From a cyanobacterium endosymbiont of Epithemia turgida isolate EtSB Lake Yunoko (GTDB lineage Bacteria > Cyanobacteriota > Cyanobacteriia > Cyanobacteriales > Microcystaceae): a stretch of 32,000 nt of DNA. The position numbers were made by a program, and so were the translations under genes. Positions 1,819-23,909 of this stretch are shown one piece after another. Location: the NCBI RefSeq assembly GCF_000829235.1, contig NZ_AP012549.1, positions 1,500,001 to 1,532,000 on the forward strand, given 5' to 3'. The notes beneath the pieces were generated by a model. The model had not been told where the DNA came from. It saw only the letters and a program-made list of their open reading frames with translations, and did not search any database. Position 1 is the stretch's first letter. Each line of letters starts with the position of its first letter.

Positions 1819-4782
1819 TTAATAATTATTAATTATTTAATTGTGTTTAAGCTCTTTTTATTCACTAAGAAATAAAAAAACTTTTAAGTGAATATGATGA
1901 ACTACAAATTGGCATGAAATAATTTTATATACAAAAACACAATACATGATTATATCGATAATATCATTGTTAAGTTAGGTAGTTTATAAGAACAGTAGTA
2001 GATAAACAATTTAATCATGTATTCATAGCCGATAAAATCAATTTTGTTGATAGCTTAGTTTAGTTTTTGAAAATAAGAAATCTATAATATTATTGGATAT
2101 TTTTTATTTTTAAATAACAGTTTTAATATGGTTTACATCAAGAGAATAAAAAGATGATAATGCGACCTATAATTTCATATATTTCATTAGTTCTCTAACT
2201 TCTATTACTTTATAAGTGAATAAATTTTTCATAACTAGATAAGTCCCTAGCTAGAGCTATAGTATCAGCATTTCTATTTTATTCATAAGAAAAAGTGATT
2301 TATTTATCCATTGTTCACAAGTAAAAGGGACCAAAGAAACTCAACGTAGCAGACGACTCAGGTCAACATGATATTTTTTTCTTGATTATTGGAATATTTT
2401 ACATGAGCTAGTTTTTCTTTAATCGCTCGGCAAAATTATGAGGCACGGCTAACTTAACCCTGATTTTGTCAATAAAAACTAGATCTAAAAGTTTAGGTTG
2501 ACTAACTGTAGTCAAATATTTTTATTTCTGAGTTTAAAGCTTATTGTGTGTAACTTACCAAGGTATAAAGTATTTTAAAAAATCAAGTTAAGTTTTTTGA
2601 CGAAACGACATATAGTAAAAATACTAACTGTAACACCTTATTTTTTCTCGTAAGTGAGAACTTAGTTATTGTAGAATAGTATCATTATTTTTTCTAATAT
2701 TCTATAATATTAAGCATATATTTATATCTAATCAAAGAAGATTTAAAGCATAGATATAATAGTAATTATATACTTTTTATTATTTGATAACTTCTAAACA
2801 ATAGATAAACATATGTCAGATTTAAATTCAAGTTGATTGATATTATTTACATTTAATCTGATTTTAAAGGGAATATATATAGACTACTGCTTTATCTTTT
2901 AGTGTGACTATTATTTTTATATTCTTTACATCAATCTATCTGAACAAAAACTACTTTTAGTTAAATAAAATATAAATTTTAATATATTTAATTTGATACT
3001 AAAATAATAAAGTATTAATTGTTTAGTTATCGACGATATAAAAACTAAATTAACATGATATTTACTATTTCTAAAAAAATTAATATTTTTATTGTACAAC
3101 TTAATCCATAAGAGTATTAATAATTACTTAAAATAACAATCTTAACGATAAACAATAAAATTGTTATCTCAAAAAATAGAATAAGATAAAGATATTTTAT
3201 ATATTTAAATCAAAAATTTCTTTTATACAACTAATATTAATACTTAGTTAAGTAAGAAATAATTTAATAATTATAAATACTTTTTTGTTTTCAAATTTAC
3301 ATAATATAAAATATTAATTTCATATTATGTAACTAACCATTCATATTAATTTTTATATAGAAAATTTTTCTTATTAAGAAATAATCTATAGTTCTTTTTG
3401 ATTAATTTTTTTAAAAAATTTGTTAGTAGTAGATACTTAGTCTATAAAAATTTTAAGATTAAATTGTACTTTAAATAAAAATATATTTAGGTAATCTGTA
3501 TTATCTTTGATTGACTTTAAAATTAATAATGTACCACAGTAGCGCGAAATCAAATTTGATTTATATTTATAATCTTATCTCACAGGATTTAGTTTGATTT
3601 AAATAAGTTTTTAAAAACTTATTACGCTCTACTATAAGGCTGAGAAAAAACTTATATCAGAGTATAATTGATAAAACTAATTCTAGTAATTTATTCTTTG
3701 TAAACCGAAAAATAGCATAATAACACCATTGTTCAGGACATAATCTCTGCTAAAAAATTATTACCAACTACATTAGTATTTTTTTTACAAGTAGAAACCT
3801 ATAAAGAAAATTATTTCATAGGTTTATTTTCTGATCTATAATAATCGATTTTAATAAATTTACTATAATTTTTTACCAACAAAACCTATTAATTAAAAAA
3901 CAAAATAATAACGCTGTTTATATATTTAATATAAATTGCTTAAATCAAAAAATATTTAGGTAAACTTAAGATAAGATTTTATGCTTATGGATTTGTATTT
4001 TCTGTCTAGTCAATATCGTCATTTTAATTGAGTTATACATGGGCAAATTAATAAATTTCAAAAATAGCGATACATTAGAATCTACTAACCAGGTAGATAG
4101 ACTGACTTTAGTCCTGCTTAAAAAATATATTAAAGTATAGTTAACGATATTTACCTCAATAAAAAATAACTAATATTTATCTATATTTTATTTTTATAGT
4201 TCTAAAAAATAATTCCCGTTATTGCTACTTTTGAATAAGTTATTTGTATGGAAATAAAAAATATATTTTAACCTAAATAAATATAACTTAACCCCAGATA
4301 ATTAAATTAAAATAAAAAAGATAATCATGATTATTTTAACTTTTAAATATTTAGGTTGTTGATCTTGTTAAAGACAATGTCATCATTCCCATGAATAAAC
4401 GAACATAAAAAGTTTTCCCTGATGTGAAACTATCGAGAACTACAAAGTCTATAGGAACCAATAATATAATTACGGCATGCAATGCTCGAGTAGTCAAGTA
4501 TAAATTATTCTAAGAAATTCATTAACTTCTTATCTAAAATATCAAGATATATAGCCTAAAAATATAATACTGAGCGATGGACAAAAATTTTTCCTACTTA
4601 TTGGTGACTAACACCCCTTAAGAGATCACCACCATTAAACTCTCAATAATATAAGTTTAATCTAGCTTCTAACAAGTTAGACAAAGATAGTAGACTAACT
4701 ACTTCAATTAAGTTTAATTTAGTGGATTTATTACCTAGAGATAAAATTTTTAAAACAGTGAGTGATTAATAAGGAGTATCTT

Positions 4783-5052: not shown

Positions 5053-5931
5053 AATATTTATAGATAGAATGTATTGTTATGAATAATTTAATGAATTTCA
5101 TTAAAAGTTAACCATCATTTAGATTACCTTAAAACAGATTATTTATGCAAGTGTGTAGACGAGCTTCAAATTCATGGTTTTCAACTACATAAAAAAAATG
5201 CTATAAGTAAATATACTTACCTCCAACAATAGAGATAATCTAACCCAATAATTATTTATTGTTTAAAATTTAAATTTATACTACAAAACAATTTAAATAG
5301 TGTGTAAACAACCACACAAATAGAATTTTTTATTGACTTTAAATAAGTAGTAATATTCTTATCTTGTTGTTAAAGATAGCAAATAAGGTAGAAAATTATG
5401 CTGTAATTGCTGATAATTAGGAAAAAATATTAAATTTTAGATGATTCTAAAATTTAAGTTTTCTTAAGTAAAATAATAATTAAATTAAAAGAAAAATATA
5501 TCAACTACCTGACCATCTAGATTGAAACAAAATTGAAAATCAGTAGTTTACTACAATAACTAAACTTAAACAAATGTTACCCATACTTGAAACAGTTAAG
5601 AAATCTATATATTTTTGTTTATCAATTGTTCTAGTGTTTTAGAATTTTTCTGTTAGGCTTTAACATAAAAATTTTAAAAACCTATCCTCTTTTTCTTGCC
5701 TGAGATATGTTTTAATGTTTGTTTTTTGTCAAGTATTACTTTTGACTTTTTTTTTTGTTCTGAGATTTTGTTATAGCTAAGAAAAAAAATGGTGTTTTTA
5801 TCGCTAAGGAATTTATTTTAAACACCTGCATCTACAAATAGTAAACTTATAACTTTTGTTCGAGTAAAATCTCTAGAATAGAAACCGGGCAAGAAACAAT
5901 GTTATCAGTTATTAAAAAGTCTGAACTTGAT

Positions 5932-5983
5932 AATCTCCCTAAATAGATATTTTTGTCGACAAAAATATCTATTTAGGGAGATT
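5932..5983. repeat. 52-bp perfect palindrome (26-bp arms, no spacer) centred on GTCGAC
   Basis: aatctccctaaatagatatttttgtc|gacaaaaatatctatttagggagatt. I checked every position pair from 5957/5958 out to 5932/5983, and the first mismatch is at 5931/5984. It lies 74 nt upstream of the purA ATG. Confidence 0.95.
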
Positions 5984-6051
5984 TAGCTAATGAAACTGGG
6001 TTAAAGCCAACTAGTTGAATAATTTTAACTTGACAAAAACTTCTCTTATAA

Positions 6052-7440
<1,389 letters not shown>

Positions 7441-7475
7441 CAATTAACGATTTTGTTTTAGGGAGTAATTATCTT

Positions 7476-7784
7476 ATGTCTCTTAGTATTGAGTGTCAAA
7501 AAAGACCTGAAGGCAGTAAACCTAATGCCCTGCGCCGGAAAGGATTAATTCCTGGCAGTTTATATGGACATGATGGAGCAAATTCTATGTCCTTAGTTGT
7601 TAATGCGAAGGAAGCAGTGAACCTCTTAAAAAAGGTTTCCATTAATGAGACCATCATCGAAGTTCAGATCCCCGATCTATCTTGGAAAGGTAAAGCTTTA
7701 ATTAGGGAAGTACAAGCTCATCCTTGGAAAAGAACGGTTTTACATTTGAGCTTTTTTCATGTAGTTGATGCTGAAGCAGCCTAA
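7476..7784 (+). CDS. rplY: 50S ribosomal protein L25 (short form)
   Basis: 102-aa ORF with LRRKGLIPGSLYG, like the RR-x-G-x-IP-x-x-x-YG motif of bL25. A GGGAG Shine-Dalgarno lies ~10 nt upstream, and the gene sits 35 nt after purA. Confidence 0.8.
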   Translation: MSLSIECQKRPEGSKPNALRRKGLIPGSLYGHDGANSMSLVVNAKEAVNLLKKVSINETIIEVQIPDLSWKGKALIREVQAHPWKRTVLHLSFFHVVDAEAA

Positions 7785-7829
7785 TGGTTTGACATATTCA
7801 TCCTCTCAGTGAAAATATATTAATCAATA

Positions 7830-7865
7830 TCCCCGCTAATCTACTGAGACAACGGGGAGTTTTTG
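7830..7865 (+). terminator. Candidate intrinsic terminator between convergent rplY and ribH
   Basis: tccccg (7830-7835) pairs with cgggga (7853-7858) around a 17-nt loop, followed by g-ttttt. The large loop makes it only moderately convincing. Confidence 0.4.
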
Positions 7866-7903
7866 ACTTTCTAAAGCATCAGTTAATTGGTCAGTTTCAA
7901 AGA

Positions 7904-8497
7904 TTATTCTAGTTGTTCTGAAATTTCCGAGAAAGATTCACTAATCATCGGGCGACTATGGGAAGAAACTGGTAACTTAGAGGGATTATTACCTTGGTAC
8001 GTTGAAGATCGTACTTGCTGGTGAATTTTTTCCATTAAACTAGCCATTTCCAAAGCATTGAGAGCATAATTCCAGCCCAAATTGCTTTTAATCCCAGCTC
8101 TTTCCAGAGCTTGTTGCATAGTGTCGGTGGTTAGAACTCCAAAAATTACCGGAATGCCTGTTTGAAAGCCTACTGCTGCGATCCCTTTGGCAACTTCTGC
8201 GGCCACATAATCAAAGTGGGGCGTATGTCCTCGAATCACAGCCCCCAAGCAAATGATGGCATTGTAACGATGAGACAGAGCTAGTTGACGAGCCACTAGA
8301 GAGATTTCAAAACTTCCTGGGACCCAAATATAATCAACCTGAGTACTGTCAGGATTAACATTTATGCCGTGCCTTTTTAAGCAATCTTTACAACCTGATA
8401 GAAGTTTTTCGGTTACTAGGTCATTGAAACGACCAATAACGACAGCAAAGCGTAAGGCAGATAGATCTTGAGTAAAAGTTCCCTCGAATGTCGTCAT
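7904..8497 (-). CDS. ribH: 6,7-dimethyl-8-ribityllumazine synthase
   Basis: 197-aa ORF with [17 protein letters not shown] and [14 protein letters not shown] motifs characteristic of RibH. The S/Q-rich C-terminal tail is longer than the core domain. Confidence 0.9.
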
Positions 8498-8542
8498 AAA
8501 TATTCAGTTGAGTACGTCTGTGTAAAGGTTATTTCTCATATC

Positions 8543-8570
8543 ATAGAGGTCAACAGTTGTTGACCTCTAT
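8543..8570. repeat. Perfect 13-bp-arm inverted repeat 45 nt upstream of the ribH start
   Basis: atagaggtcaaca gt tgttgacctctat. The arms contain G/C, unlike the surrounding sequence. Confidence 0.9.
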
Positions 8571-8881
8571 ATTAGTTATTAGTTTATCCATGATTGATAG
8601 TTAATGTCCCTATATATAATTTCTACTTTAGGTAAGGACACTTGTATTGTATTCGAAAATAAGCTTAAAATTCCTCCAATTGATGATCAGGACAGTCCAA
8701 ATAGCATATTCAATATTTAAGGTAAGAGTTTAGACTTATCTTGAATTTTTAAAAAAAATATAGGTTACTGGGATACCGCAAACCATGATAAAGAAAAAGA
8801 GGACTACAGTTGATAAAGCAATTTAGAAAACGATAGACATTGTAAAAGTTTTCCTAAAGTTATCGTAAGTAGAGTTGGGTG

Positions 8882-8927
8882 AAAGTAGCTTTGAGAGTCT
8901 AAGCTATCAGACTGTCAAAGCTACTTT
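8882..8927. repeat. 19-bp-arm inverted repeat (1 mismatch), 8-nt loop
   Basis: aaagtagctttgagagtct aagctatc agactgtcaaagctacttt. The single g/g mismatch is at 8895/8914. Confidence 0.9.
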
Positions 8928-9456
8928 ATTAGTAAGTTATTAAATATAAGAATATTCATAGTTTCTCTATTTATAGTCATTTAAATTTTTGAGTAGTTCT
9001 CAGACTAAAGATATAAGTAACTATTAACTTATATTAGTTAGAGTATTATACTTCATAACTTTTTAGATAAAAAATACTGGATACATATATAAAAGTTGAA
9101 TCAAAGTAAAAAATTATTATTACTTTGACTATAAATATATGATCAAACAATTTATTATTAGTAATCTACTGAATAAATTAAAAATATTTAGTAATTTAAT
9201 TTATAGCTAGAATATAATTTATTTTATATTAAATACTGCTTTGATTTTTAATAAAATTTAGGTAAGAATACAAGATTAAAATTTATTACCAGTCAAAGAT
9301 AAAATAAGAGTTGTGCAAAAATTATTATCAAAATAGTAAGTTAATAAACTTTTAATTTAAAAACTGGGTAGATTTTTAAACCTATAAATTTATAAATTTT
9401 TATTGTAATTAACTTTAATTTATTAGGATATTCTACTATTTTGTTATTGCTTGGCT

Positions 9457-9508
9457 ACGATAGGCAATATTTAGACTAAATATTGCCTATCGTAAAAAAT
9501 TTACGATA
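9457..9508. repeat. 17-bp perfect hairpin overlapping a second 9-bp hairpin
   Basis: acgataggcaatattta gac taaatattgcctatcgt (9457-9493). The 3' end of its right arm also forms tatcgtaaa aaa tttacgata (9488-9508). The tacgata motif occurs in direct and inverted orientation. Confidence 0.9.
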
Positions 9509-10439
9509 AATACACTTTTAATACCGATTATTTAATCTTAATAATTCTGATATATGGATTTAGGTTTTCTCACAAATATTTTATATTTATCTGAATTTAT
9601 TCTTTTATTTAACTTTGATAAAAGTTTATTTAGAGATAGAATTAAGTATTAACTTGCTTTGTACAATCAAATCTATCTGTTACCACTTAAGTTTATAAAA
9701 TCAATTAGTTGATAACACAATTAAATATCTTAAAAGAATATTTTAATTATGTTAAATTTTAGCAACCCCCGGTTTTTTGAATTAATCTTAAGCTATTTAA
9801 ATAGATAAAGTTTTTATATGCAATTATTGATCTACTCAAAAGAGTATATATTTTTATTTTTTTGTTATTAAATTTTCTATAAATATATTTATAAATTAAT
9901 CATATTCTATGTATAAATAGTTCATAAAGTATCTTCTCTTTTTAAGAATTATTTTTATAATTAATTTGTTATTTTAATAAATCTTTTTAAGAAGTAAATT
10001 ACACTAAAGATAAGTTAATGTTGTATGTATTTACAGTAAATGTAACTATTTTTATCTCATTTAAAATCTTACAACAGATAATGATAAAGTTTTCTCGATT
10101 TAAAATATTATTTATTAACCTAAGTTAAATTTTTCCTTTTATAGAATAGATATAAATTAAATAAACGTGTTGAGTTTGCGATAATTTAATTCAAATAAAA
10201 ACCTTGTTATTATATTGTCTATAGTATAATTACTACTTTTTAAAAAAATTATAATTAATAATGAATCTTTATCCTTGTTTTTATTCGTGTAGCTTTTATA
10301 TTAATATCAAATATATAAAAATAAAATCTTTAAATAAATTAAAATATAAATAAGAAATTAACATAGAATATATAGGTTAATTTTTGAATAATAAATATGT
10401 TTTAATTAAATTATTAGTAATTCTTTACAAAAATTATAC

Positions 10440-10488
10440 ATATCTTGTATTTATTGATATTTTTAAAATGCCAATAAATACAAGATAT
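10440..10488. repeat. 17-bp perfect inverted repeat, 15-nt loop
   Basis: atatcttgtatttattg (10440-10456) is the exact reverse complement of caataaatacaagatat (10472-10488). Confidence 0.9.
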
Positions 10489-10538
10489 TCTTACTGGTCC
10501 AATATGAGATTAATAATAAACTCCTTCTATATTATGCT

Positions 10539-10572
10539 CTTAAAGCAGAAAGCTATAGCTTTCTGCTTTAAG
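10539..10572. repeat. 34-bp perfect palindrome
   Basis: cttaaagcagaaagcta|tagctttctgctttaag, checked pair by pair. It lies 50 nt downstream of the previous hairpin. Confidence 0.9.
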
Positions 10573-11159
10573 CTTAAAAATTTAAAGTTAAAAATATTTT
10601 GACAAAAAAATCTTAGTTACAAGTCAAATAATCTTATTTTAAAATTAGATTTTTATAAGAATTATTATAAGTACTTTGTTATCTCAGGCAGGATAGTAAG
10701 TTTAAGAAAATTATATTTATTTATTATTATTATTGTTCATTAATTAGTATAACTACAATAATAATAAATAGAATTTCTCATAGAAAATATGGTGTCTTAA
10801 AAATATTTTTATTAACTTGTATTTAAACGCATTCAAATTATTTACGAAATTAAAGTGACTAAATTTATCAATAAATTTTATAATTAAGTGTTAAAAAATC
10901 GAGGTAATTAAGTAACTATATCTGTCTAGTAAACAGACTAAAAAATACAAAATTATTCAAAAAATTAGATAGTAATTATATATTTTTATACAATAGAATT
11001 TCTCATAAAAGAAATAATTTTACTTTTTACAAAAAAATACTTATAATGAAATGAAAACAATCTAGATATAAATAATATCTATAAAATCTTGTTTAATTGA
11101 AAATTAGAGCTTATTATTACAAAATAAGTATCTAAAAAGTAAAGATTATTTTTAATAAA

Positions 11160-11199
11160 ACTATTTTTTATATTTTAAGAATAAAATATAAAAAATAGT
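11160..11199. repeat. 18-bp perfect hairpin, 4-nt loop (almost pure A/T)
   Basis: actattttttatatttta agaa taaaatataaaaaatagt, checked pair by pair. Confidence 0.85.
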
Positions 11200-11694
11200 A
11201 AATTTTCTGTAGTGATAAATTGTACCCATGGTAATAAAATTGTTAATAAATCTAATAAATCAAAACAAGAGGAGATATCGTATTTATCATAATTCCTTAA
11301 AAAAGAAGTTTTTATAAACTAAAATCAAGCATGGTTTTTTGATTAAAATTACTATTTACGTTAACTATAAATTACTGGACAACAAATAGTTAAAAAAATT
11401 TATTTTCCATTTGCTAAAATTCTTTACTGACTAAGTAAAATTATCTAGGTTTACTTCAGTATTATTCTGATGGAATTAAATTTATTTGTTGTTGTACTTA
11501 TCTATTAATATCTGTATGAGAGCAAAGCTATAAGAATAATTTTAAAAATTTATAAATATTGAGGCGTTAGTAAAAAATTTTATGTTAAATATTTTTTGCT
11601 AACGATACTAGAGATAACTCGGAATTAATTTAGAAACCTACTGTGTATAATGACACATATTATAGGTTAGCTTATTAAAACTTAGCCCATATTT

Positions 11695-12146
11695 AATTTA
11701 TATATTTCTTGTACATGATATCATCAATATATTGAAATTTTAATGGTTCAGATCTATTAATCTCAATAAGAATTTAACCAAATAGTCTGTTTAGCTAAAG
11801 GAGGGGTAAGAATTGGGAATATTTTCTGTCGTTTTGATAAAAAGTCTCTGGAAATTCTTTATATTACTTCATATCTGGATGAAAAAATTAAAAATGAGGA
11901 GAAATTTAACTTTCAAATGATTTAGCTATGATATGGGAATCATTGGGATATCGTATATTATTAGTCGAAGATTTAATTGATTCTGGTATTTATCTTTAAG
12001 AAGGAACCCAAAAATAATTAGAATTCGGTCTGCTTTCCTCTGCTACAAAAGTTCTTCTGCCGTTAAACCTGATTACTATGTGAAATATTTAGCTTTACAT
12101 GTATATTCATATATTTGAAAAGTTAAGAGTCAAATTACTTGTTTAA
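11695..12146 (+). pseudogene. Decayed type I phosphoribosyltransferase (small cyanobacterial Gpt/Hpt-like PRT family)
   Basis: Translation across three frame changes gives four segments. Segment 1: YISCT*YHQYIEILMVQIY*SQ*EFNQIVCLAKGGVRIGNIFCRFDKKSLEILYITSYLDEKIKNEEKFNF. Segment 2: DLAMIWESLGYRILLVEDLIDSGIYL*EGTQK*. Segment 3: IRSAFLCYKSSSAVKPDYYVKYL. Segment 4: YIHIFEKL. The PRPP-binding loop (ILLVEDLIDSG) and the ARGG-like and PDYYV motifs are recognisable. In-frame stops lie at 11716, 11758, 11767 and 11997, and the frame changes from 1 to 0 to 2 to 0. Confidence 0.7.
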
Positions 12147-12205
12147 AAAATAATGTACGAGATACTAACAAAAAAATATATATCTATCAGTTATGCAAAT
12201 AAATA

Positions 12206-12511
12206 ATGAGAATTATTATCATGGTATACGTTCTTATGTCCATAACAACGAATCTCTAAAGAGAATCTATAACTGCCTTTCTCATATTTAAGGACATATC
12301 AGAGGGGTGGGTAAAAACAATGGTAATAGATAATCGTCACTGCCTATAAATTTTAATCCAATTAGCAACAGTTAGAGTAGCAATTGATCGAGTATCTTAG
12401 TCAAATTTAGATGAATATTTAAGCGAATGTGTAGCATGTGCGGAACAATAGGGTAATATCAATGAGGAAATTGAAAAATTAAAAGTAGCTTTAGATAAAA
12501 TTTTGCCTTAA
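12206..12511 (+). pseudogene. Possible decayed ~100-codon gene of unknown family
   Basis: One frame reads MRIIIMVYVLMSITTNL*RESITAFLIFKDISEGWVKTMVIDNRHCL*ILIQLATVRVAIDRVS*SNLDEYLSECVACAEQ*GNINEEIEKLKVALDKILP*. It has only 4 internal stops in 102 codons, and G+C is locally higher than in the surrounding desert. I could not recognise a family. Confidence 0.3.
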
Positions 12512-13267
12512 TCTTGTATTTGAGTGAGTTGATTGTTTCTCAAAATCAAAGATTATATAGTGAATTAATCCAATTTAGTCAACTCACTCAAGTTCTTCTA
12601 TTAAGACTTGTAAAGGTAATTTTCGAGGGAGTTGGAACACATATAAATTTATGGGGTAATTTTTTTGTGTCGACTATATTGACAACTATGAGAAATTTTA
12701 TGCATTGTCATGAACTAAAGTATTGAACTATAATACTTAATTGGAGTACAAAGATTGGGGAATGATAGGCACGACCCCATATAAGAAATATTATTAACTT
12801 TATTTATCCACGAGTGGGAAAGTTCTCTTTTTTATTCGAATGCAAACACATGAATATGATACGGAAGAGCAATATTTGGCTATATTGGAAACTAAACTAT
12901 ATTTAAGAAAAATAGTTTTTATAACCTTATTTATTGCTCAAATAAGTTATATACTTGTGATTTTAAATTAATTATTTATTGAAATACATTATTTTTTTAC
13001 TCTTTATTTTATGGGGCGATGGTTACAGCAAAAGTGCTTAATTTAAAGTTAATTAATGTTACTTTATTACACAATTTCTTGAATGTATTTCTAGTACAGA
13101 AGTGTTAAGTAGAAAACAATTAGTAATCTGTTTTTAATTTATTCTACTCTTTATTTTGATAAAATTTTAAAAAATATTTATTTACTTGAAATAAAAAATT
13201 ATCAATATTGTTATGATAGACAACATCTATCAAATATTTTTTTAAAAAAATTTAACCTTAACGATTT

Positions 13268-13999
13268 ATGATCTGTAACTTATTACCTGACTTCAACGAA
13301 ATTTGGCAAAAAACTCTACATTGGGAACCCACTAAATCACAACTTGAACAATGGGAAAAATTATATCAAGAAATAATATCAGCTAACTGCAAAATCAACC
13401 TGACTAGGATTACTGAACCCAAAGATTTTTGGGAAAAACACTTATGGGATTCTTTGGCAGGTATTGATACAAAAATTATTGATATTAAGTCTTCTTTAAA
13501 AGGAATAGATATTGGTACAGGAGCAGGATTTCCAGGTATTCCAGTAGCTACAATTTATCCTAATTTACAAGTTACTCTTCTTGATTCAAAAATAAAAAAA
13601 ATAAAGTTAATAAACTTAATTTTAGATAAATTAAAGTTTATTAATTGTAAAACATTAATTGGAAGATCAGAGACTATTGGGCAGATAAAAAAATATCGAG
13701 AAACTTATGATTTAGCTTTAATTCGTGCTGTTGGCACACCTTCTGTTTGTACTGAATATGCCTTACCTCTCTTGAAAATTGGAGGAATAGCTGTATTATA
13801 TAGAGGACATTGGCACGATAAAGACAAGTTAACTCTAAAATCTACCGTAGAAAAATTAGGGGGTAAAATTATATCAATCAAAAATGTTGAAACTCCATTA
13901 ACTAAGAGTATTCGTACCTTTATTTATATTAAAAAAATATCTACAACTTCCCAAAAATTTCCTCGTCAAATAGGAATACCTAACCGGAATCCTCTATAA
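13268..13999 (+). CDS. rsmG: 16S rRNA (guanine527-N7)-methyltransferase RsmG (GidB)
   Basis: 243-aa ORF with NLTRI, HLWDSL, the SAM-binding DIGTGAGFPGIP motif, LLDS and IRAV motifs. It is strongly K/I/N-enriched. Confidence 0.9.
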   Translation: MICNLLPDFNEIWQKTLHWEPTKSQLEQWEKLYQEIISANCKINLTRITEPKDFWEKHLWDSLAGIDTKIIDIKSSLKGIDIGTGAGFPGIPVATIYPNLQVTLLDSKIKKIKLINLILDKLKFINCKTLIGRSETIGQIKKYRETYDLALIRAVGTPSVCTEYALPLLKIGGIAVLYRGHWHDKDKLTLKSTVEKLGGKIISIKNVETPLTKSIRTFIYIKKISTTSQKFPRQIGIPNRNPL

Positions 14000-14548
14000 A
14001 TTACACTATTATAAAAAAAAATTTTTAGATATTATTAAGCAAGACTTTTGAAGCTAACTTAACCTTATTAAGACTATCGACTTTAGGTTTTTGATTATTT
14101 TTTCAATGGAGATTTTATCCAAAATTTTTATATTGACATTACTATACAATTTAACATCTCAAAAAACTCTACTATTTGGGAGAAAAAGTCATCAAGAGAG
14201 ATAGAAACACTTACTGTATGGTTGATGTAGAGACTCATACAATTTTTTAAAGATTTTTTTATTTTCAGTAGTGGTATATTAATAGTTCTTAGTTCAAAAC
14301 TTTTCCTTGTTCTGCCCTGTTAGGGCTCACTTTTTGTGAACAGCTTTCTATTTTTGACTTATTTTAAGTTTATCTACTTACCGGTTTTAAATTATTTTTT
14401 TGACTTTAAATTTTATAAAATTTTTTAAATAAATGATTGTTATATTTTTCTCTGTCTTTCAACTTTTAACTAATTAGAGTCTCTTTTGCTGGTTAAAATT
14501 TTAAAATTTTTCTGATCCATAATTTAAGATTAAATGTTGAGATTTACC

Positions 14549-14595
14549 CAAAAAATAAAAGTATAAATGACACTTATTTATACTTTTATTTTTTG
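14549..14595. repeat. 20-bp perfect hairpin, 7-nt loop
   Basis: caaaaaataaaagtataaat gacactt atttatacttttattttttg. The arm complementarity was checked base by base. The U-rich 3' arm makes it terminator-like in both orientations. Confidence 0.9.
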
Positions 14596-15293
14596 TTCTT
14601 ATTTATATACTTGATATTTTGCTTATTAGTTATACATCATAAGTTTTATAAAATAAAATGATATATTTTTTTTATAAAACAATCAAAAAATAACAATATT
14701 GACTCTTTCTAAGAAAACCAAATAAACTTTATGATCTAAAATATTTTTATAGTATAGTAAAATATTAATAATATCTATCTAAAAAATATTAATGATGATG
14801 AGATCAACTAAATAACTAATTATAAATTATTAAATACATTCCCTTTATCTTTAATATATTAAAAATATGTAAAACTTAGCTTTAGTAGATACTATCGGAA
14901 TTTATATTCCACCTGTGTGCTTGAACTATAAAAATCATCTAATATCTTTTTTAAAATAAAAATAAATTCTTGGATCTTGTTTGAGAATAAGTAGATATTA
15001 AAAATATTATTAAAATAATATTTTATATTTAAAGACTTTAAACCTTGAAATAAACATGCTTTTATGATCAATTACATAATCATTAACTAAGATTATTTTC
15101 TTCTTTATTTTTTGTCTATACTTTAGTCTTATAAAGAAATAATCATTTAATTCCCTTTTAAACCTTATAGGATTTTTAAGAATGTAGATTTTCTTGATTT
15201 GTTAATTAACTAAGGAGAATTAGCTATAAAATAATTTAATATTTACAAAGAGTACATAATTGTTATTCTGATAATTACTGGTAAAGACTTTTG

Positions 15294-15367
15294 CTTAAAT
15301 GGTAATATTTTCCTTGAAATATCGCCATTTAAGCCTCTATTTATTACTTCAATAAATAGAGGCTTAA
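15294..15367. repeat. Two overlapping strong hairpins sharing 5 nt
   Basis: Hairpin A is cttaaatgg-ta-atattt tccttg aaatat-cg-ccatttaag (15294-15333). Hairpin B is ttaagcctctatttatt acttc aataaatagaggcttaa (15329-15367, 17 bp perfect). Both use ttaag at 15329-15333, so they are mutually exclusive. Confidence 0.9.
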
Positions 15368-15850
15368 TAATCTTCACAATATTGATCAGCCACTTATAGT
15401 GTCATTTATGTGTTTTTAATCAAATGTTTAAAAACCTAAGCTAGACGAGCTGTAGCAATATTACAATAAATAAAAGCTAAAGGTCTTACCTTACGAAAAT
15501 TATAGAATACCAATAACTTTACTTTTACCAAAATCAATTTTTTATAATTATAGAATAAGATTCTAACAGGAGTTTTAAAAATTATTAGTTATCAGATACT
15601 GATTTATTATACTCAGTCCAGAAAAGGAAAAATTTAGATTATATATATAATCTCTGTCCTGTAGTCCTTTGTTAATATTTTTATCTTGCTTTAGTTTATA
15701 TAAAGAATAACAGGAGAAGAATAGTGTTTGTAACAATATAAAATTAGCAGAAATAAGTATATTAGTCTCAAAATTATTAATTGTTTGGATACATTTGATA
15801 ATTCAGTGAATAATTACTCAGATTTTAATGTGATGAATCTTGAGAATAAA

Positions 15851-17843: not shown

Positions 17844-17932
17844 AAATTTAGAGTTCAATAAAAAAATTTTTATTTTTTTATTGAAACAAAAGCTATTTTG
17901 GTTATAAATTTATAAATTACCTTGATTAACTG

Positions 17933-19079: not shown

Positions 19080-20195
19080 AAAAAAGTTAAGTTGGTAATA
19101 GCTTGATAAAACTTTTAAAAAGCTGTTGAATTAACCAGGTAAAGGCTTAAAATCATCTAATAGCTAGATGTAGTTAATTAAAATTTAACTCACTAAATCT
19201 AGTCTACACTATTTTAGTAGTGTAACACAAAAGGCTTTGTTTAAAAAAATCAAGTCATATTCAACTGAATATTTATAATTCACTAAGAAAATTGAAAACC
19301 TGACAATTTTTGTGAAAGCTATTCCTTTGTTAAAATTCAATTTGTTTAGTTCTAATTTTTATATTATTTTTATAATCAAGTTGTAAACAAAGTTATTAAA
19401 AGTCTAGTTATTCAATTTTTATAACTTATTTTTTTATTAATGATCACCATAGATAGTATATCAAAGTAATTGTGTGAGTTAAACAAAGTTTATCTAGAAA
19501 GTAGCCGGCAATTTTTACTCACTTTATTCAGTACCTTATGAATTTTTATAAATCTAGATTTAATAAAGTGTAAATAGTTAGAAACTATTATCTTATATTC
19601 AAAAATAATCATCTCTGAATAAAATTTTATAATATAGTATTTAAACTAAAATTTAAGCTTTTTATTTGAAAAATATTTAGTTATCTTTTACAAATTCAAA
19701 ATTACTATAATACATAGTAATTATCTTAAATTTTTTATATAGCTTATGTTATAGTTGACTTGTCAATACGTAGTCACAAGTATAGTATAGTGACTAATGG
19801 ATTTGAGTTCTTATTGATTAATTTGGTAAGTCAAGGGAATTAAAGATTATACAAAAGTTGTTTATAATTGATTTTCTCCTAGATAATTAATTCGCTAACT
19901 GAAAAAAAACTAGGAGCAGTTAAGCTGAAAAGAGAAGGTCTTTCCAGAATATAGTTTGGATGAATTTCTTCAAGTTAGGGTAATTTATTTAGAAACTAAT
20001 CATTGGCTAAACTTTCTGCTATTTAAAGATAATCATGCTAGAAGGTTAAACAAAAAATCAATTATAAAATCAGAGACTATAGATAGTAATCAATAGCTAA
20101 AATAGATTATTAATTGTTGTTTGATAAACGTAATGATCTTTCGGAAAAACTGCTAATTATAGTAAATAAACAGTTTACCCTTATCTTGAATAAAA

Positions 20196-20807: not shown

Positions 20808-21102
20808 ATGTAAGTGGAATTTCGCCACCTCAATCGGAAAAGTTATTTAATTCTACACTAACTTAAAATCATTATGAGAAAGTGTTGCTGAACGTTAGTA
20901 AATCTAATTTTTAAGATCATTAGTTAAATTCTGATGACTTTTTGAGAAAATATATATAGCGGCTGAATTTATAGTATTACGTATTATGGTTAAGAAATTA
21001 ATAATTATTAGAAGATTTTGCAAGTTTGTGCACTGTCCACCTCACAACAAGGTATTATTATTACATAATACGGTATTTTAATGAAAAATTGCCATAAATT
21101 TG

Positions 21103-21161
21103 GTATCAAAGATCAGCCAAGAGTAGTTTAGTGGTTACGGCTCTTGACTGATCTTTGATAC
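21103..21161. repeat. 21-bp-arm hairpin (1 mismatch), 17-nt loop
   Basis: gtatcaaagatcagccaagag tagtttagtggttacgg ctcttgactgatctttgatac. The single mismatch is at 21117/21147. Confidence 0.9.
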
Positions 21162-21606
21162 TTCTCCCGACGATTCGTGTAAGGATATAACTCTGGTCTC
21201 TCTACTCCACAACGAAAGGTTACTTTTTTAGTGATCTTTATCTCAGATAAAAGATATTGCAATTTATCCATACTCTACCCAGATACTCCTAAAGTCAGTA
21301 CTAACGAATATCTATCAGCTGTAAGTACATCGTTTTTAAATCACCAAAAAACTTTTCTTACTTGCTTCCTGGCTTCTCAGTATGATCAACTGTCTAACAT
21401 AATCTGTAATCTATGAATGCCTGTTTTCATTAGCTAACTTGAGGAAGTCAGTTCTTCAACTTCTTATCTTGTTTTAGAAGAAATTGCCATATTTGCTATA
21501 TATCTAATTTTTCTAATTTATTAGTCAAGCTCTAAGCGTATTTTTATACTAACATCAAGATATTGTAAATATTTCCCTATGTTTTGAGAAGTACCACAAG
21601 TCTACA

Positions 21607-23603: not shown

Positions 23604-23909
23604 AAGTCAATAATTGAGGATAAAATTAAGTTAATCTTGCTATTTCGATCACTTAAAAGTCGAAAGTTGCCTATAATAATGTCTTTTAGTTAAAAGTAAA
23701 ATCTTACCAAGGCTATTTCTGCATTTGCTTTTATTCTGATAAAAGTGTTTAACTAACTAAAAAATAATAAACTAGCTTAAGTGTTGCATACCTGAGCATA
23801 ATTATTAAAGAGTAAAGTTTTTTATATAGTTGAGTTAAAAAATATTTTTATAAAAATATTTTTTAAGTTTTTTGTCTAAAGTTAAGTCTCGTTAAAATAG
23901 GTAAACTAT

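Follow-up and report, generated by a model that had tools for sequence, protein, structure and literature searches.

Non-coding DNA in the spheroid-body genome of Epithemia turgida (EtSB) carries long perfect hairpins in excess over chance, and comparison with related genomes reveals their lineage-specific birth as reverse-complement copies, extension of their arms, loop inversion and concerted changes of both arms. The hairpins are probably products of short-range template switching in replication (also named quasi-palindrome correction) on neutral, dead DNA. The E. turgida endosymbiont is a N2-fixing cyanobacterium residing inside a diatom. The window, the whole stretch of 32,000 nucleotides analyzed here, was compared with the spheroid body (SB) of E. 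adnata (97% identity), two metagenomic strains and three Rhopalodia-clade SB genomes; the SB sequence covered amounts to ~115 kb from a single genomic neighbourhood.

Excess of perfect hairpins in dead DNA

About 57% of the window is non-coding gene wreckage, and all 12 hairpins with arms of at least 13 bp fall within this part. A tblastn search with intact L165 proteins recovered two plus-strand pseudogenes, a phosphoribosyltransferase (11695-12094) and a CsoR-like repressor (12193-12505), both with 65-69% identity to the L165 proteins, spread over 2-3 frames and interrupted by in-frame stops; the two genes are intact in L165, L166 and L169. The spacer containing these broken genes is thus dead gene DNA. 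The G+C content of the DNA is 17-25%, and non-coding divergence between the window and L081 is 7.6%.

Perfect inverted repeats (loop ≤20 nt) were counted over the whole window and in dinucleotide-preserving shuffles (200 for each of four block sizes, from 100 nt to the whole window). There are 13, 12, 8 and 7 repeats with arms of at least 12, 13, 15 and 17 bp, respectively, against shuffle means of 0.18-0.46, 0.05-0.14, 0.005-0.025 and 0; a 17-bp hairpin appeared in none of the 800 shuffles. A sequence-only reading had listed inverted repeats, all of which were recovered in place, and had estimated roughly that chance would supply practically no arms of this length; the estimate was correct and the excess stands. 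As a control for low complexity we counted mirror repeats and close direct repeats of at least 13 nt, finding none of either vs. 12 reverse-complement repeats; the excess is confined to reverse-complement symmetry. It is also largest for perfect arms: 16-nt arms with 0, 1, 2 and 3 mismatches number 8, 3, 8 and 18, compared with shuffle means of 0.02, 0.17, 1.7 and 13.4.

The hairpins are mutually unrelated and none has a second copy in the ~140 kb of related sequence searched, in agreement with the earlier view that they are not one repeat family. Seven of the 12 crowd into 2.7 kb of the window. Loops are only 0-2 nt in 5 of 13 hairpins, so that complementarity runs through the axis. The exceptional density implied by the sequence-only reading has to be toned down, as the number per non-coding kb is only ~1.6 times that in intergenic DNA of free-living cyanobacterial loci. 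Many intergenic hairpins of free-living cyanobacteria presumably have a function, and density taken alone may be compatible with hairpin function.

Hairpin births, arm extension and concerted change

The syntenic 20 kb yields 27 hairpin instances (arms of at least 13 bp) across four SB species, and only one is common to all genomes. Each SB genome has its own set, almost entirely lineage-specific, and the sets differ even among strains that are 93-97% identical. Orthologous DNA of the other species (60-77% identity) has background arms of 4-9 bp in almost every case. New arms are exact reverse-complement copies written over unrelated ancestral sequence. In the hairpin at 11160-11199 (18-bp perfect arms), which was born in the EtSB lineage, five genomes, L081 and three outgroups among them, have kept the right arm, while the left arm is found only in EtSB, in place of ~27 nt of unrelated ancestral sequence. 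Close to this site L081 has a different, 15-bp hairpin of its own and L165 a third. The converse arrangement occurs at L165 2312-2359, where the left arm is ancestral and the right arm replaces sequence common to EtSB, L166 and L169. Further births by reverse-complement overwriting are L166 922-975, L169 9269-9303 and the 52-bp perfect palindrome at 5932-5983 (26-bp arms, no loop), located ~75 nt upstream of purA; the three Rhopalodia-clade genomes have non-palindromic DNA of equal length at this position (best arms 5-7 bp), and a central G>A in E. adnata SB leaves 25-bp arms. The divergent genes hemB and rsuB start on either side of an all-A/T perfect palindrome of 32 bp (23835-23866), which is unaltered in E. 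adnata SB and missing from L166 and L169.

The one hairpin common to all SB genomes, with 13-bp arms, is the G+C-containing palindrome at 8543-8570, located 46 nt ahead of the start of ribH. Its outer pair is A:T in EtSB and G:C in the outgroups, reading GTAGAGGTCAACAG / CTGTTGACCTCTAC, and it alone among the hairpins matches a terminator-like pattern. It is probably a separate, older element, possibly functional or REP-like.

Existing hairpins have also been modified. The arms at 14549-14595 are 16 bp in E. adnata SB and 20 bp (perfect) in EtSB, where four substitutions within 6 nt (AACGATT to ACCCAAA) lengthened them; AACGATT is ancestral, being common to L175 and L176. This hairpin is not present in outgroups and was removed from strain L175 by a ~60-nt deletion. 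At 15329-15367 (17-bp perfect arms), the 5-nt loop reads ACTTC in EtSB, as in the outgroup orientation, and GAAGT in the 97% identical E. adnata SB, both states being confirmed by a second assembly; the difference is a loop inversion. An overlapping hairpin occupies 15293-15334 (18 bp, 89%), and over 15293-15367 as a whole E. adnata SB also differs by one two-sided G:C>A:T change and two one-sided changes.

Two-sided changes recur elsewhere. At 8882-8927, one of two near-perfect hairpins in the earlier list (a single G.G mismatch in 19-bp arms, of which 13 bp are perfect), L081 has A:T at a pair that is G:C in both EtSB and E. adnata SB. In the 34-bp perfect palindrome at 10539-10572 (17-bp arms, no loop), one G:C pair is replaced by T:A in L081, both arms having changed, and the L081 arms are 19 bp. 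The hairpin previously given as 17 bp at 9457-9493 is real but longer, extending from 9456 to 9494 (perfect arms of 19 bp around a 1-nt loop); a second, overlapping hairpin (9489-9507) uses a third copy (TACGAT) at 9502-9507. The three copies read C/G/C in EtSB, G/C/C (a mismatch) in E. adnata SB and G/C/G in L081, with the right arm derived relative to outgroups L165 and L166. This pattern represents a chain of arm-to-arm conversions, with the donor allele visible in a sister genome. Over the 79 stem pairs of five hairpins shared by the window and L081 there are three two-sided complementary changes and no one-sided change; none of 20,000 permutations was free of one-sided changes (P < 5e-5). 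As transversion pairs, two of these double changes had no G.U intermediate.

Other hairpins are stable, lost or less perfect in one genome. The hairpin at 10440-10488 (17-bp perfect arms; 24 bp at 92%) is unchanged in L081 despite 6% flank divergence, and its region is deleted from E. adnata SB. For the decaying hairpin at 10724-10767 (arms perfect over 13 bp; 20 bp at 90%), L081 shows several one-sided differences and a best arm of 6 bp. The nearly all-A/T hairpin at 17854-17885 (14-bp arms) is shorter in E. adnata SB (12-bp arms, two one-sided differences) and has no counterpart in outgroups. At 11565-11604, the second near-perfect repeat of the earlier list (16-bp arms, 2 mismatches; 90 nt upstream of the phosphoribosyltransferase pseudogene), the L081 version is less perfect than that of EtSB, and at 3297-3332 (16-bp arms, 1 mismatch) the E. 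adnata SB counterpart has 16-bp perfect arms and another loop.

A generic scan for mutation clusters returned hairpin-associated events only, one between the window and L081 and one between the window and L176 (the loop inversion, counted from both sides); its mirror and complement controls gave 0-2. With so few events, template switching is a minor source of clustered changes overall. The case for it rests on ~10 events inspected one by one.

Mechanism and alternative explanations

Template switching would begin at a chance short inverted match, at which the nascent strand could fold onto itself or anneal to the opposite template. A stretch would then be copied as reverse complement before the polymerase switches back, a single copying step replacing the old sequence by a perfect arm. 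Once a hairpin exists, further switching could lengthen its arms outward and now and then invert its loop, and a new stem mismatch could be resolved by reversion or by copying onto the other arm, so that arms would change together and stay fully matched. In the end hairpins would be destroyed by point mutations and deletions, leading to turnover, and selection would purge such events from genes, leaving hairpins to build up in non-coding DNA only. We infer that the enzymatic route is template switching at replication and not, e.g., mismatch repair in extruded hairpins. A higher switch rate in spheroid bodies owing to their loss of RNase HII is speculative.

The strongest competitor, which we regard as unlikely, is selection for structure in RNA or DNA (terminators, read-through insulators or plastid-like 3'-end stabilizing stem-loops): hairpins would arise repeatedly since any stable stem suffices, and would be kept perfect by selection. 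Some locations agree with this: 17854-17885 lies 100 nt downstream of a live nifU-like gene (minus strand), 14549 and 15329 lie between convergent rsmG and tRNA-Arg/oppC, and L166 922-975 is exactly at a live gene's 3' end. Predicted RNA stems are stable (-7 to -32 kcal/mol), intergenic hairpin density is similar in free-living relatives, and the absence of one-sided changes relative to L081, while flanks diverge 3-8%, would also fit strong purifying selection on stems. However, most hairpins are far from the 3' end of any live gene. Six are inside 4.8 kb of dead spacer (8498-13267) with a 5' gene end on either side, those of ribH and rsmG, so no live transcript ends there, and three more (5430, 5932 and 23835) are upstream of live gene starts. 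Hairpin positions are not conserved between SB species, and stem G+C is as low as 0-7%. U-tracts are lacking and terminator-like sites are not in excess (5 observed vs. 4.4 expected from shuffles). Central pairs across a 0-2-nt loop cannot be used by an RNA hairpin, and five hairpins are perfect through the axis. One-sided stem changes relative to E. adnata SB are about as frequent as in neutral DNA, and neither the loop inversion nor the four-substitution arm extension resembles stepwise selection on point mutations. The hairpins matched no terminators, mobile-element families, known RNA families or assembly artefacts, and appear to lack a function. The interpretation in the sequence-only reading is thereby partly upheld: its RNA 3'-end stabilizers and read-through insulators find no support in the dead-spacer sites, positional turnover and terminator counts, and its third option, a mutational process creating and homogenizing palindromes, is what the comparison of genomes bears out, with newly copied arms, a lengthened arm, an inverted loop and concerted changes of both arms.

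It is quite improbable that the hairpins are decaying relics of ancestral terminators or operators of now-dead genes. The DNA was formerly genic, as the two pseudogenes attest, and the ribH-upstream palindrome is ancestral to all SBs, but every other polarizable hairpin is derived and missing from outgroups. Relics should be imperfect, yet the perfect class has the largest excess, and new hairpins distinguish even near-identical strains. An origin from mobile elements, be it as remnant or as footprint (terminal inverted repeats of MITE or IS type, REP elements, excision footprints), is more improbable still: the outgroup ends of 8543-8570 are of the GTAG...CTAC type, like REP-type palindromes in free-living cyanobacterial loci, but the hairpins are mutually unrelated and single-copy in the sequence searched, and births copy directly adjacent sequence with no foreign DNA inserted. 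That the hairpins match by chance in DNA that is A+T-rich and of low complexity, or are artefacts of assembly (k-mer assemblers are upset by perfect palindromes, and Logan unitigs terminate inside 5932-5983 and break within 10539-10572), is refuted by the shuffles, the mirror and direct repeat controls, and independent recovery of the palindromes: they recur in the SRR29904087 Logan assembly, in another strain's metagenome contig from JGI and in E. adnata SB, with strain-specific two-sided changes.

Comparison with known systems

The mechanism of template switching and its signatures are established elsewhere (PMC5453318, PMC8794818, PMC5941160). A reverse-complement copy of neighbouring DNA overwrites the old sequence in a single event, making perfect stems, apparent compensatory double changes and inverted loops (PMC5453318, PMC8794818). 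All signatures of these quasi-palindrome or short template-switch mutations (Ripley model; Loytynoja & Goldman 2017; Monttinen & Loytynoja 2022) are also present in the SB. While those studies concerned reporter genes, primate genomes and rRNA genes, the SB hairpins occupy kilobases of dead endosymbiont DNA and have arms of unusual length (17-26 bp) and a density that makes them visible to the eye. Perfect inverted repeats of prokaryotes are far above expectation, mostly outside genes and perfect beyond neutral decay, for which template switching was proposed as the cause (Lavi et al. 2018, PMC5941160). The SB hairpins share the excess, the non-genic location and the maintained perfection, but many E. 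coli repeats are terminators or REP elements conserved across species (PMC5941160), whereas those of the SB are almost all unique, lineage-specific and in pseudogenized DNA. Mutation can therefore be largely separated from function here.

Kelchner and Wendel (1996) reportedly described small hairpin-associated inversions in plastid non-coding spacers. Such spacers have A+T-rich hairpins with loops that flip between close relatives (PMC6824564, PMC7393888), the same phenomenon as at 15329-15367. Plastid hairpins, however, are often in 3' UTRs, positionally conserved and with a known RNA-stabilizing role, while those of the SB are mostly remote from live 3' ends and turn over fast. Hairpin-forming sequences of reduced or organellar genomes also include REP/BIME, Rickettsia palindromic elements, cyanobacterial MITEs, Volvox organelle palindromes and the coding palindromes of Nematomorpha mitochondria (PMC6649704). 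Dispersed palindrome families have a shared, multi-copy sequence or are intragenic; in contrast, every SB hairpin differs in sequence from the others and is a copy of DNA from its immediate surroundings. Given their modest density relative to free-living cyanobacteria, the SB hairpins are a clean new example of a known process rather than a new kind of element.

Hairpin excess in the window

All of the inverted repeats listed in the sequence-only reading were found in the window, one with a different extent: the hairpin placed at 9457-9493 in fact spans 9456-9494, with perfect arms of 19 bp. The near-perfect repeats have 19-bp arms with one G.G mismatch (8882-8927) and 16-bp arms with two mismatches (11565-11604). 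Counting only perfect inverted repeats with loops of ≤20 nt, the whole window contains 13, 12, 8 and 7 hairpins with arms of at least 12, 13, 15 and 17 bp, respectively. The corresponding means in dinucleotide-preserving shuffles (200 for each of four block sizes between 100 nt and the full window, with local composition retained) were at most 0.46, 0.14, 0.025 and 0, and no shuffle contained a 17-bp hairpin; the suspected excess beyond base composition is therefore real (7 vs. 0 at ≥17 bp). The window has no mirror repeats and no close direct repeats of at least 13 nt, and the excess is confined to reverse-complement symmetry. For 16-nt arms with 0, 1, 2 and 3 mismatches, 8, 3, 8 and 18 cases were observed vs. 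0.02, 0.17, 1.7 and 13.4 in shuffles, the largest excess being in the perfect class.

The 12 hairpins with arms of at least 13 bp all lie in non-coding DNA, and across five spheroid-body (SB) loci there are 33 non-coding and no coding hairpins. About 57% of the window, part of the 2,794,318-bp chromosome of EtSB, the SB of the diatom Epithemia turgida (PurA, BAP17811; RsmG, BAP17814), is without long open frames. Calling this DNA dead was accurate, since the ribH-rsmG spacer (8498-13267) holds pseudogenes of genes that are intact in the Rhopalodia-clade SBs, namely a phosphoribosyltransferase (11695-12094) and a CsoR-like metal repressor (12193-12505), both with frameshifts and in-frame stops, in agreement with the literature. 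In the E. adnata SB no gene is called at either equivalent position (based on gene calls only). Seven of the 12 hairpins are bunched in 2.7 kb (8543-11199), mostly the most A+T-rich stretch (~17% G+C), and none lies inside a still-recognizable pseudogene body in the window. This bunching may reflect accrual with time since gene death or a locally hot region.

Segments corresponding to 4275-4772, 10299-11547, 19666-19802 and 20900-21381 are missing from the E. adnata SB; the last is present in L165, a Rhopalodia-clade SB, and was therefore deleted in the E. adnata SB. Deletional erosion is thus ongoing between genomes that are 97% identical. The last segment (481 nt) includes a hairpin richer in G+C (21103-21161; 21-bp arms, 1 mismatch, 17-nt loop). 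Logan short-read unitigs from the same strain (SRR29904087) stop within the zero-loop palindromes 5932-5983 and 10539-10572; the break points are the ends of L082 at 5954 and 10568 and the starts of L164 and L172. K-mer assemblies of SB genomes are fragmented by perfect palindromes.

Turnover and birth of hairpins among SB genomes

Relatives were retrieved by exact-protein look-ups and one homology search. The E. adnata SB (CP076462; L176 and L178) is 97% identical and covers 1425-32000; L081, a JGI metagenome contig from another strain, is 93.6% identical and covers 7540-13488; L175 is a more distant strain. The Rhopalodia-clade SBs (L165, AP018341; L166/L167; L169, CP192514) are syntenic, with spacers that align at 60-80% identity. 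Ordered by identity, the relationships are ((EtSB, E. adnata SB), L081), then L175, then the Rhopalodia clade. A PurA scan of genome contigs returned no SB genome among the matches listed (best 86%, Cyanothece), and these matches served solely as free-living control loci; an RsmG scan of metagenome contigs gave no match above 62%.

Every SB genome carries a private set of long perfect hairpins, located at other sites and with arms of up to 23 bp. Across the syntenic 20 kb of four species there are 27 hairpin instances with arms of at least 13 bp, and the only one shared is the ribH-upstream palindrome (8543-8570; L165 5307-5334; L166 4567-4594). Orthologous DNA at the other sites almost always has background arms of 4-9 bp, and at 11130-11230 EtSB, L081 and L165 carry three different hairpins in one place. 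The ribH-upstream palindrome, kept in all SBs, contains G+C and has a compensated outer pair. Its outgroup versions have GTAG...CTAC ends, like the GTAG(A/G)G...C(T/C)CTAC palindromes of free-living cyanobacterial loci (L007, L012, L017); judged by these sequences, it may be an ancient element, REP-like or regulatory, and unlike the A+T-rich hairpins in nature.

Where outgroups give polarity to a birth, the new arm reproduces its neighboring sequence exactly in reverse complement and overwrites unrelated ancestral DNA. At L165 2312-2359, polarized by three genomes, the left arm is ancestral and the right arm overwrites ~18-22 nt kept in EtSB, L166 and L169. At 11160-11199, polarized by L081 and three outgroups, five genomes share the right arm, while the left arm is found only in EtSB and replaces ~27 nt. 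For the purA palindrome (5932-5983), which the E. adnata SB has with one central substitution, three outgroups have non-palindromic DNA of the same length with only a 7-bp seed. Ancestral quasi-palindromes became perfect at L166 922-975 and L169 9269-9303. In the former, a perfect hairpin of 23 bp, the right arm coincides with the final 22 nt of a live glutaredoxin-like gene; compared with EtSB, L165 and L169, the end of this gene is rewritten (...YTLESDA* for ...YISEKRG*) with the stop position unchanged.

Changes are also seen between close relatives. At 14549-14595 EtSB has ACCCAAA, where the E. adnata SB and L175 have AACGATT, and the arm was lengthened from 16 to 20 bp by four substitutions within 6 nt, at ~3% divergence. 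The 5-nt loop of 15329-15367 reads ACTTC in EtSB and GAAGT in the E. adnata SB, with the stems retained; the outgroups have the ACT.. orientation of EtSB, and both states are reproduced in a second assembly. This is a clean loop inversion. Overlapping hairpin chains with a common arm motif occur at 15293-15367 (GCTTAA / TTAAGC / GCTTAA) and 9456-9507 (TACGAT / ATCGTA / TACGAT), and the next hairpin in a chain appears to be seeded by an existing arm.

Arm maintenance, probable template switching and rival explanations

Between EtSB and L081, whose non-coding DNA differs by 7.6%, five shared hairpins with 79 stem pairs show three two-sided complementary changes (G:C>A:T, C:G>G:C, G:C>T:A) and no one-sided change. 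The expected number of one-sided changes was about 12, and zero was reached in 0 of 20,000 permutations (P < 5e-5). Of the double changes, two are transversion pairs, which have no route through a G.U intermediate. At 9456-9507, where one motif in three copies forms two overlapping hairpins, the copy states are C/G/C in EtSB, G/C/C in the E. adnata SB (a mismatch remains) and G/C/G in L081; the variant that spread in EtSB is present in its sister genome as a visible donor, exactly what arm-to-arm copying would predict. Maintenance is not absolute, since one-sided stem changes relative to the E. adnata SB occur at a roughly neutral rate, and the hairpins at 10724-10767 and 11565-11604 are decaying. 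In L175 (~1518-1524; window 14546-14611), a deletion of ~60 nt takes out the 14549-14595 hairpin almost exactly, which suggests a palindrome-associated deletion.

One option in the sequence-only reading was a mutational process that makes and homogenizes palindromes. Births, extension, loop inversion and concerted arm changes are now observed, with two-sided arm changes and de novo hairpins both emerging from spacer alignments of related strains. Quasi-palindrome mutation by template switching, the probable source of the hairpins, depends on replication, and studies in E. coli and yeast have shown that 3' exonucleases or RNase H2 suppress it. The features expected of it were found here: a derived arm copied from neighboring sequence as one clustered change (L165 2312-2359, 11160-11199, 14549), a loop inverted between close relatives with its stems kept (15329-15367), and simultaneous two-sided arm changes that include transversion pairs (79 pairs vs. 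L081; 9456-9507). Stems, double changes and loop inversions are known products of template switching (PMC5453318, PMC8794818). The case for this process comprises about ten hand-inspected events in one genomic neighborhood. A first generic template-switch scan, which required reverse-complement flanks, found no event; a second scan, of mutation clusters, detected just two events, the birth at 11160 and the loop inversion at 15329 (mirror/complement controls, 0-2). As nothing else exceeded the controls, we make no claim that clustered mutations arise mainly by template switching. Lineage-private bases were more frequent in arms than in flanks (0.21 vs. 0.13), a weak measure owing to alignment in A+T-rich DNA.

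Selection on RNA structure, with the hairpins acting as terminators, read-through insulators or plastid-like 3' stabilizers, is unlikely. Six hairpins lie within 8498-13267, a spacer that ribH and rsmG both flank with their 5' ends, another three lie upstream of gene starts, and positions are not conserved between species, so the 3'-stabilizer and insulator options raised earlier are disfavored. Terminator-like sites are at shuffle level (5 vs. 4.4), and only 8543-8570 fits the pattern sought for an intrinsic terminator (G+C-rich stem, 3-8-nt loop, then a U-tract), in line with the sequence-only view that most of the hairpins are not classical intrinsic terminators. The only hairpin no more than 150 nt from the 3' end of a live gene, where such a terminator would be located, is 17854-17885, and the gene-3'-end position and positional conservation of plastid-type 3'-UTR inverted repeats were not found. 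Stem G+C is 0-39%, down to 0-7%, and in five hairpins (loops of 0-2 nt) the complementarity runs through the axis. An Rfam 15 covariance-model search returned only tRNA-Arg at gathering score, and a permissive search of 5800-15600 gave one sub-threshold miRNA-hairpin match (E = 0.58). A function is possible for a few hairpins (17854-17885, 14549, 15329 and L166 922-975).

That the hairpins are relics of ancestral regulatory structures is very improbable, as they are derived rather than ancestral (8543-8570 being a separate case). An origin as mobile-element remnants or dispersed palindromic families (REP, MITE, RPE) is more doubtful still: the hairpins are mutually dissimilar and each is unique in ~140 kb of related sequence, consistent with the earlier judgment that they are not one repeat family, and SBs are reported to have no intact transposases (PMC11131595). 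Chance or assembly artefact is negligible given the shuffles, repeat-symmetry controls, other strains and second assembly.

Possible cause, significance and comparison with other genomes

In SBs there are 0.50 hairpins per non-coding kb with arms of at least 13 bp and 0.23 with arms of at least 17 bp, vs. 0.31 and 0.16 in nineteen free-living cyanobacterial loci; on these densities, the idea that SBs are exceptional was dropped. Massive loss of DNA repair was also ruled out as a cause, with 24 of 27 repair proteins retained in SBs. RNase HII is missing from all SBs (PMC12903740), and in yeast quasi-palindrome mutations are specifically raised when RNase H2 is lost (PMC3820800). Speculatively, RNase HII loss could underlie the SB hairpin process. 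The rate in SBs may be truly raised, or the events may simply be easier to see against so much neutral DNA. It is rather improbable that RNase HII loss speeds template switching and that some newborn stems (such as those at the 3' end of the L166 glutaredoxin-like gene and between convergent genes) are being taken into use, as plastid-like RNA 3'-end elements or insulators, in an emerging organelle.

SBs, which are polyploid, form a young endosymbiont lineage that is close to an organelle, with megabases of dead DNA and many sequenced sister genomes (roughly 25 SB genomes in all). Together with the lack of mobile elements, this amounts to a mutation-accumulation experiment run by nature, where template switching can be tallied with little interference from selection. 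Within 20 kb, one can see hairpins being born, arms growing, loops flipping, arms converting each other and deletions taking hairpins out. Such events resemble compensatory evolution and clustered substitutions, and can therefore mislead alignment, phylogenetic and selection analyses of SB genomes; in one case the C-terminus encoded by a live gene was rewritten, and zero-loop palindromes break short-read assemblies. The finding also offers a testable connection between the loss of RNase HII and quasi-palindrome mutagenesis. The searchable SB literature does not mention hairpins or palindromes, and what is new is the setting, i.e., a process nearly free of function, with unique sequences and several kinds of event within 20 kb.

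The similar density in free-living cyanobacteria indicates that an excess of perfect inverted repeats is a general trait of bacterial intergenic DNA; in proteobacteria, such an excess has been ascribed to template switching (PMC5941160). Plastid spacers undergo small hairpin-associated inversions of the same type as that at 15329-15367 in SBs, and the SB hairpins show such a plastid-like spacer dynamic emerging at an early stage of organelle evolution.
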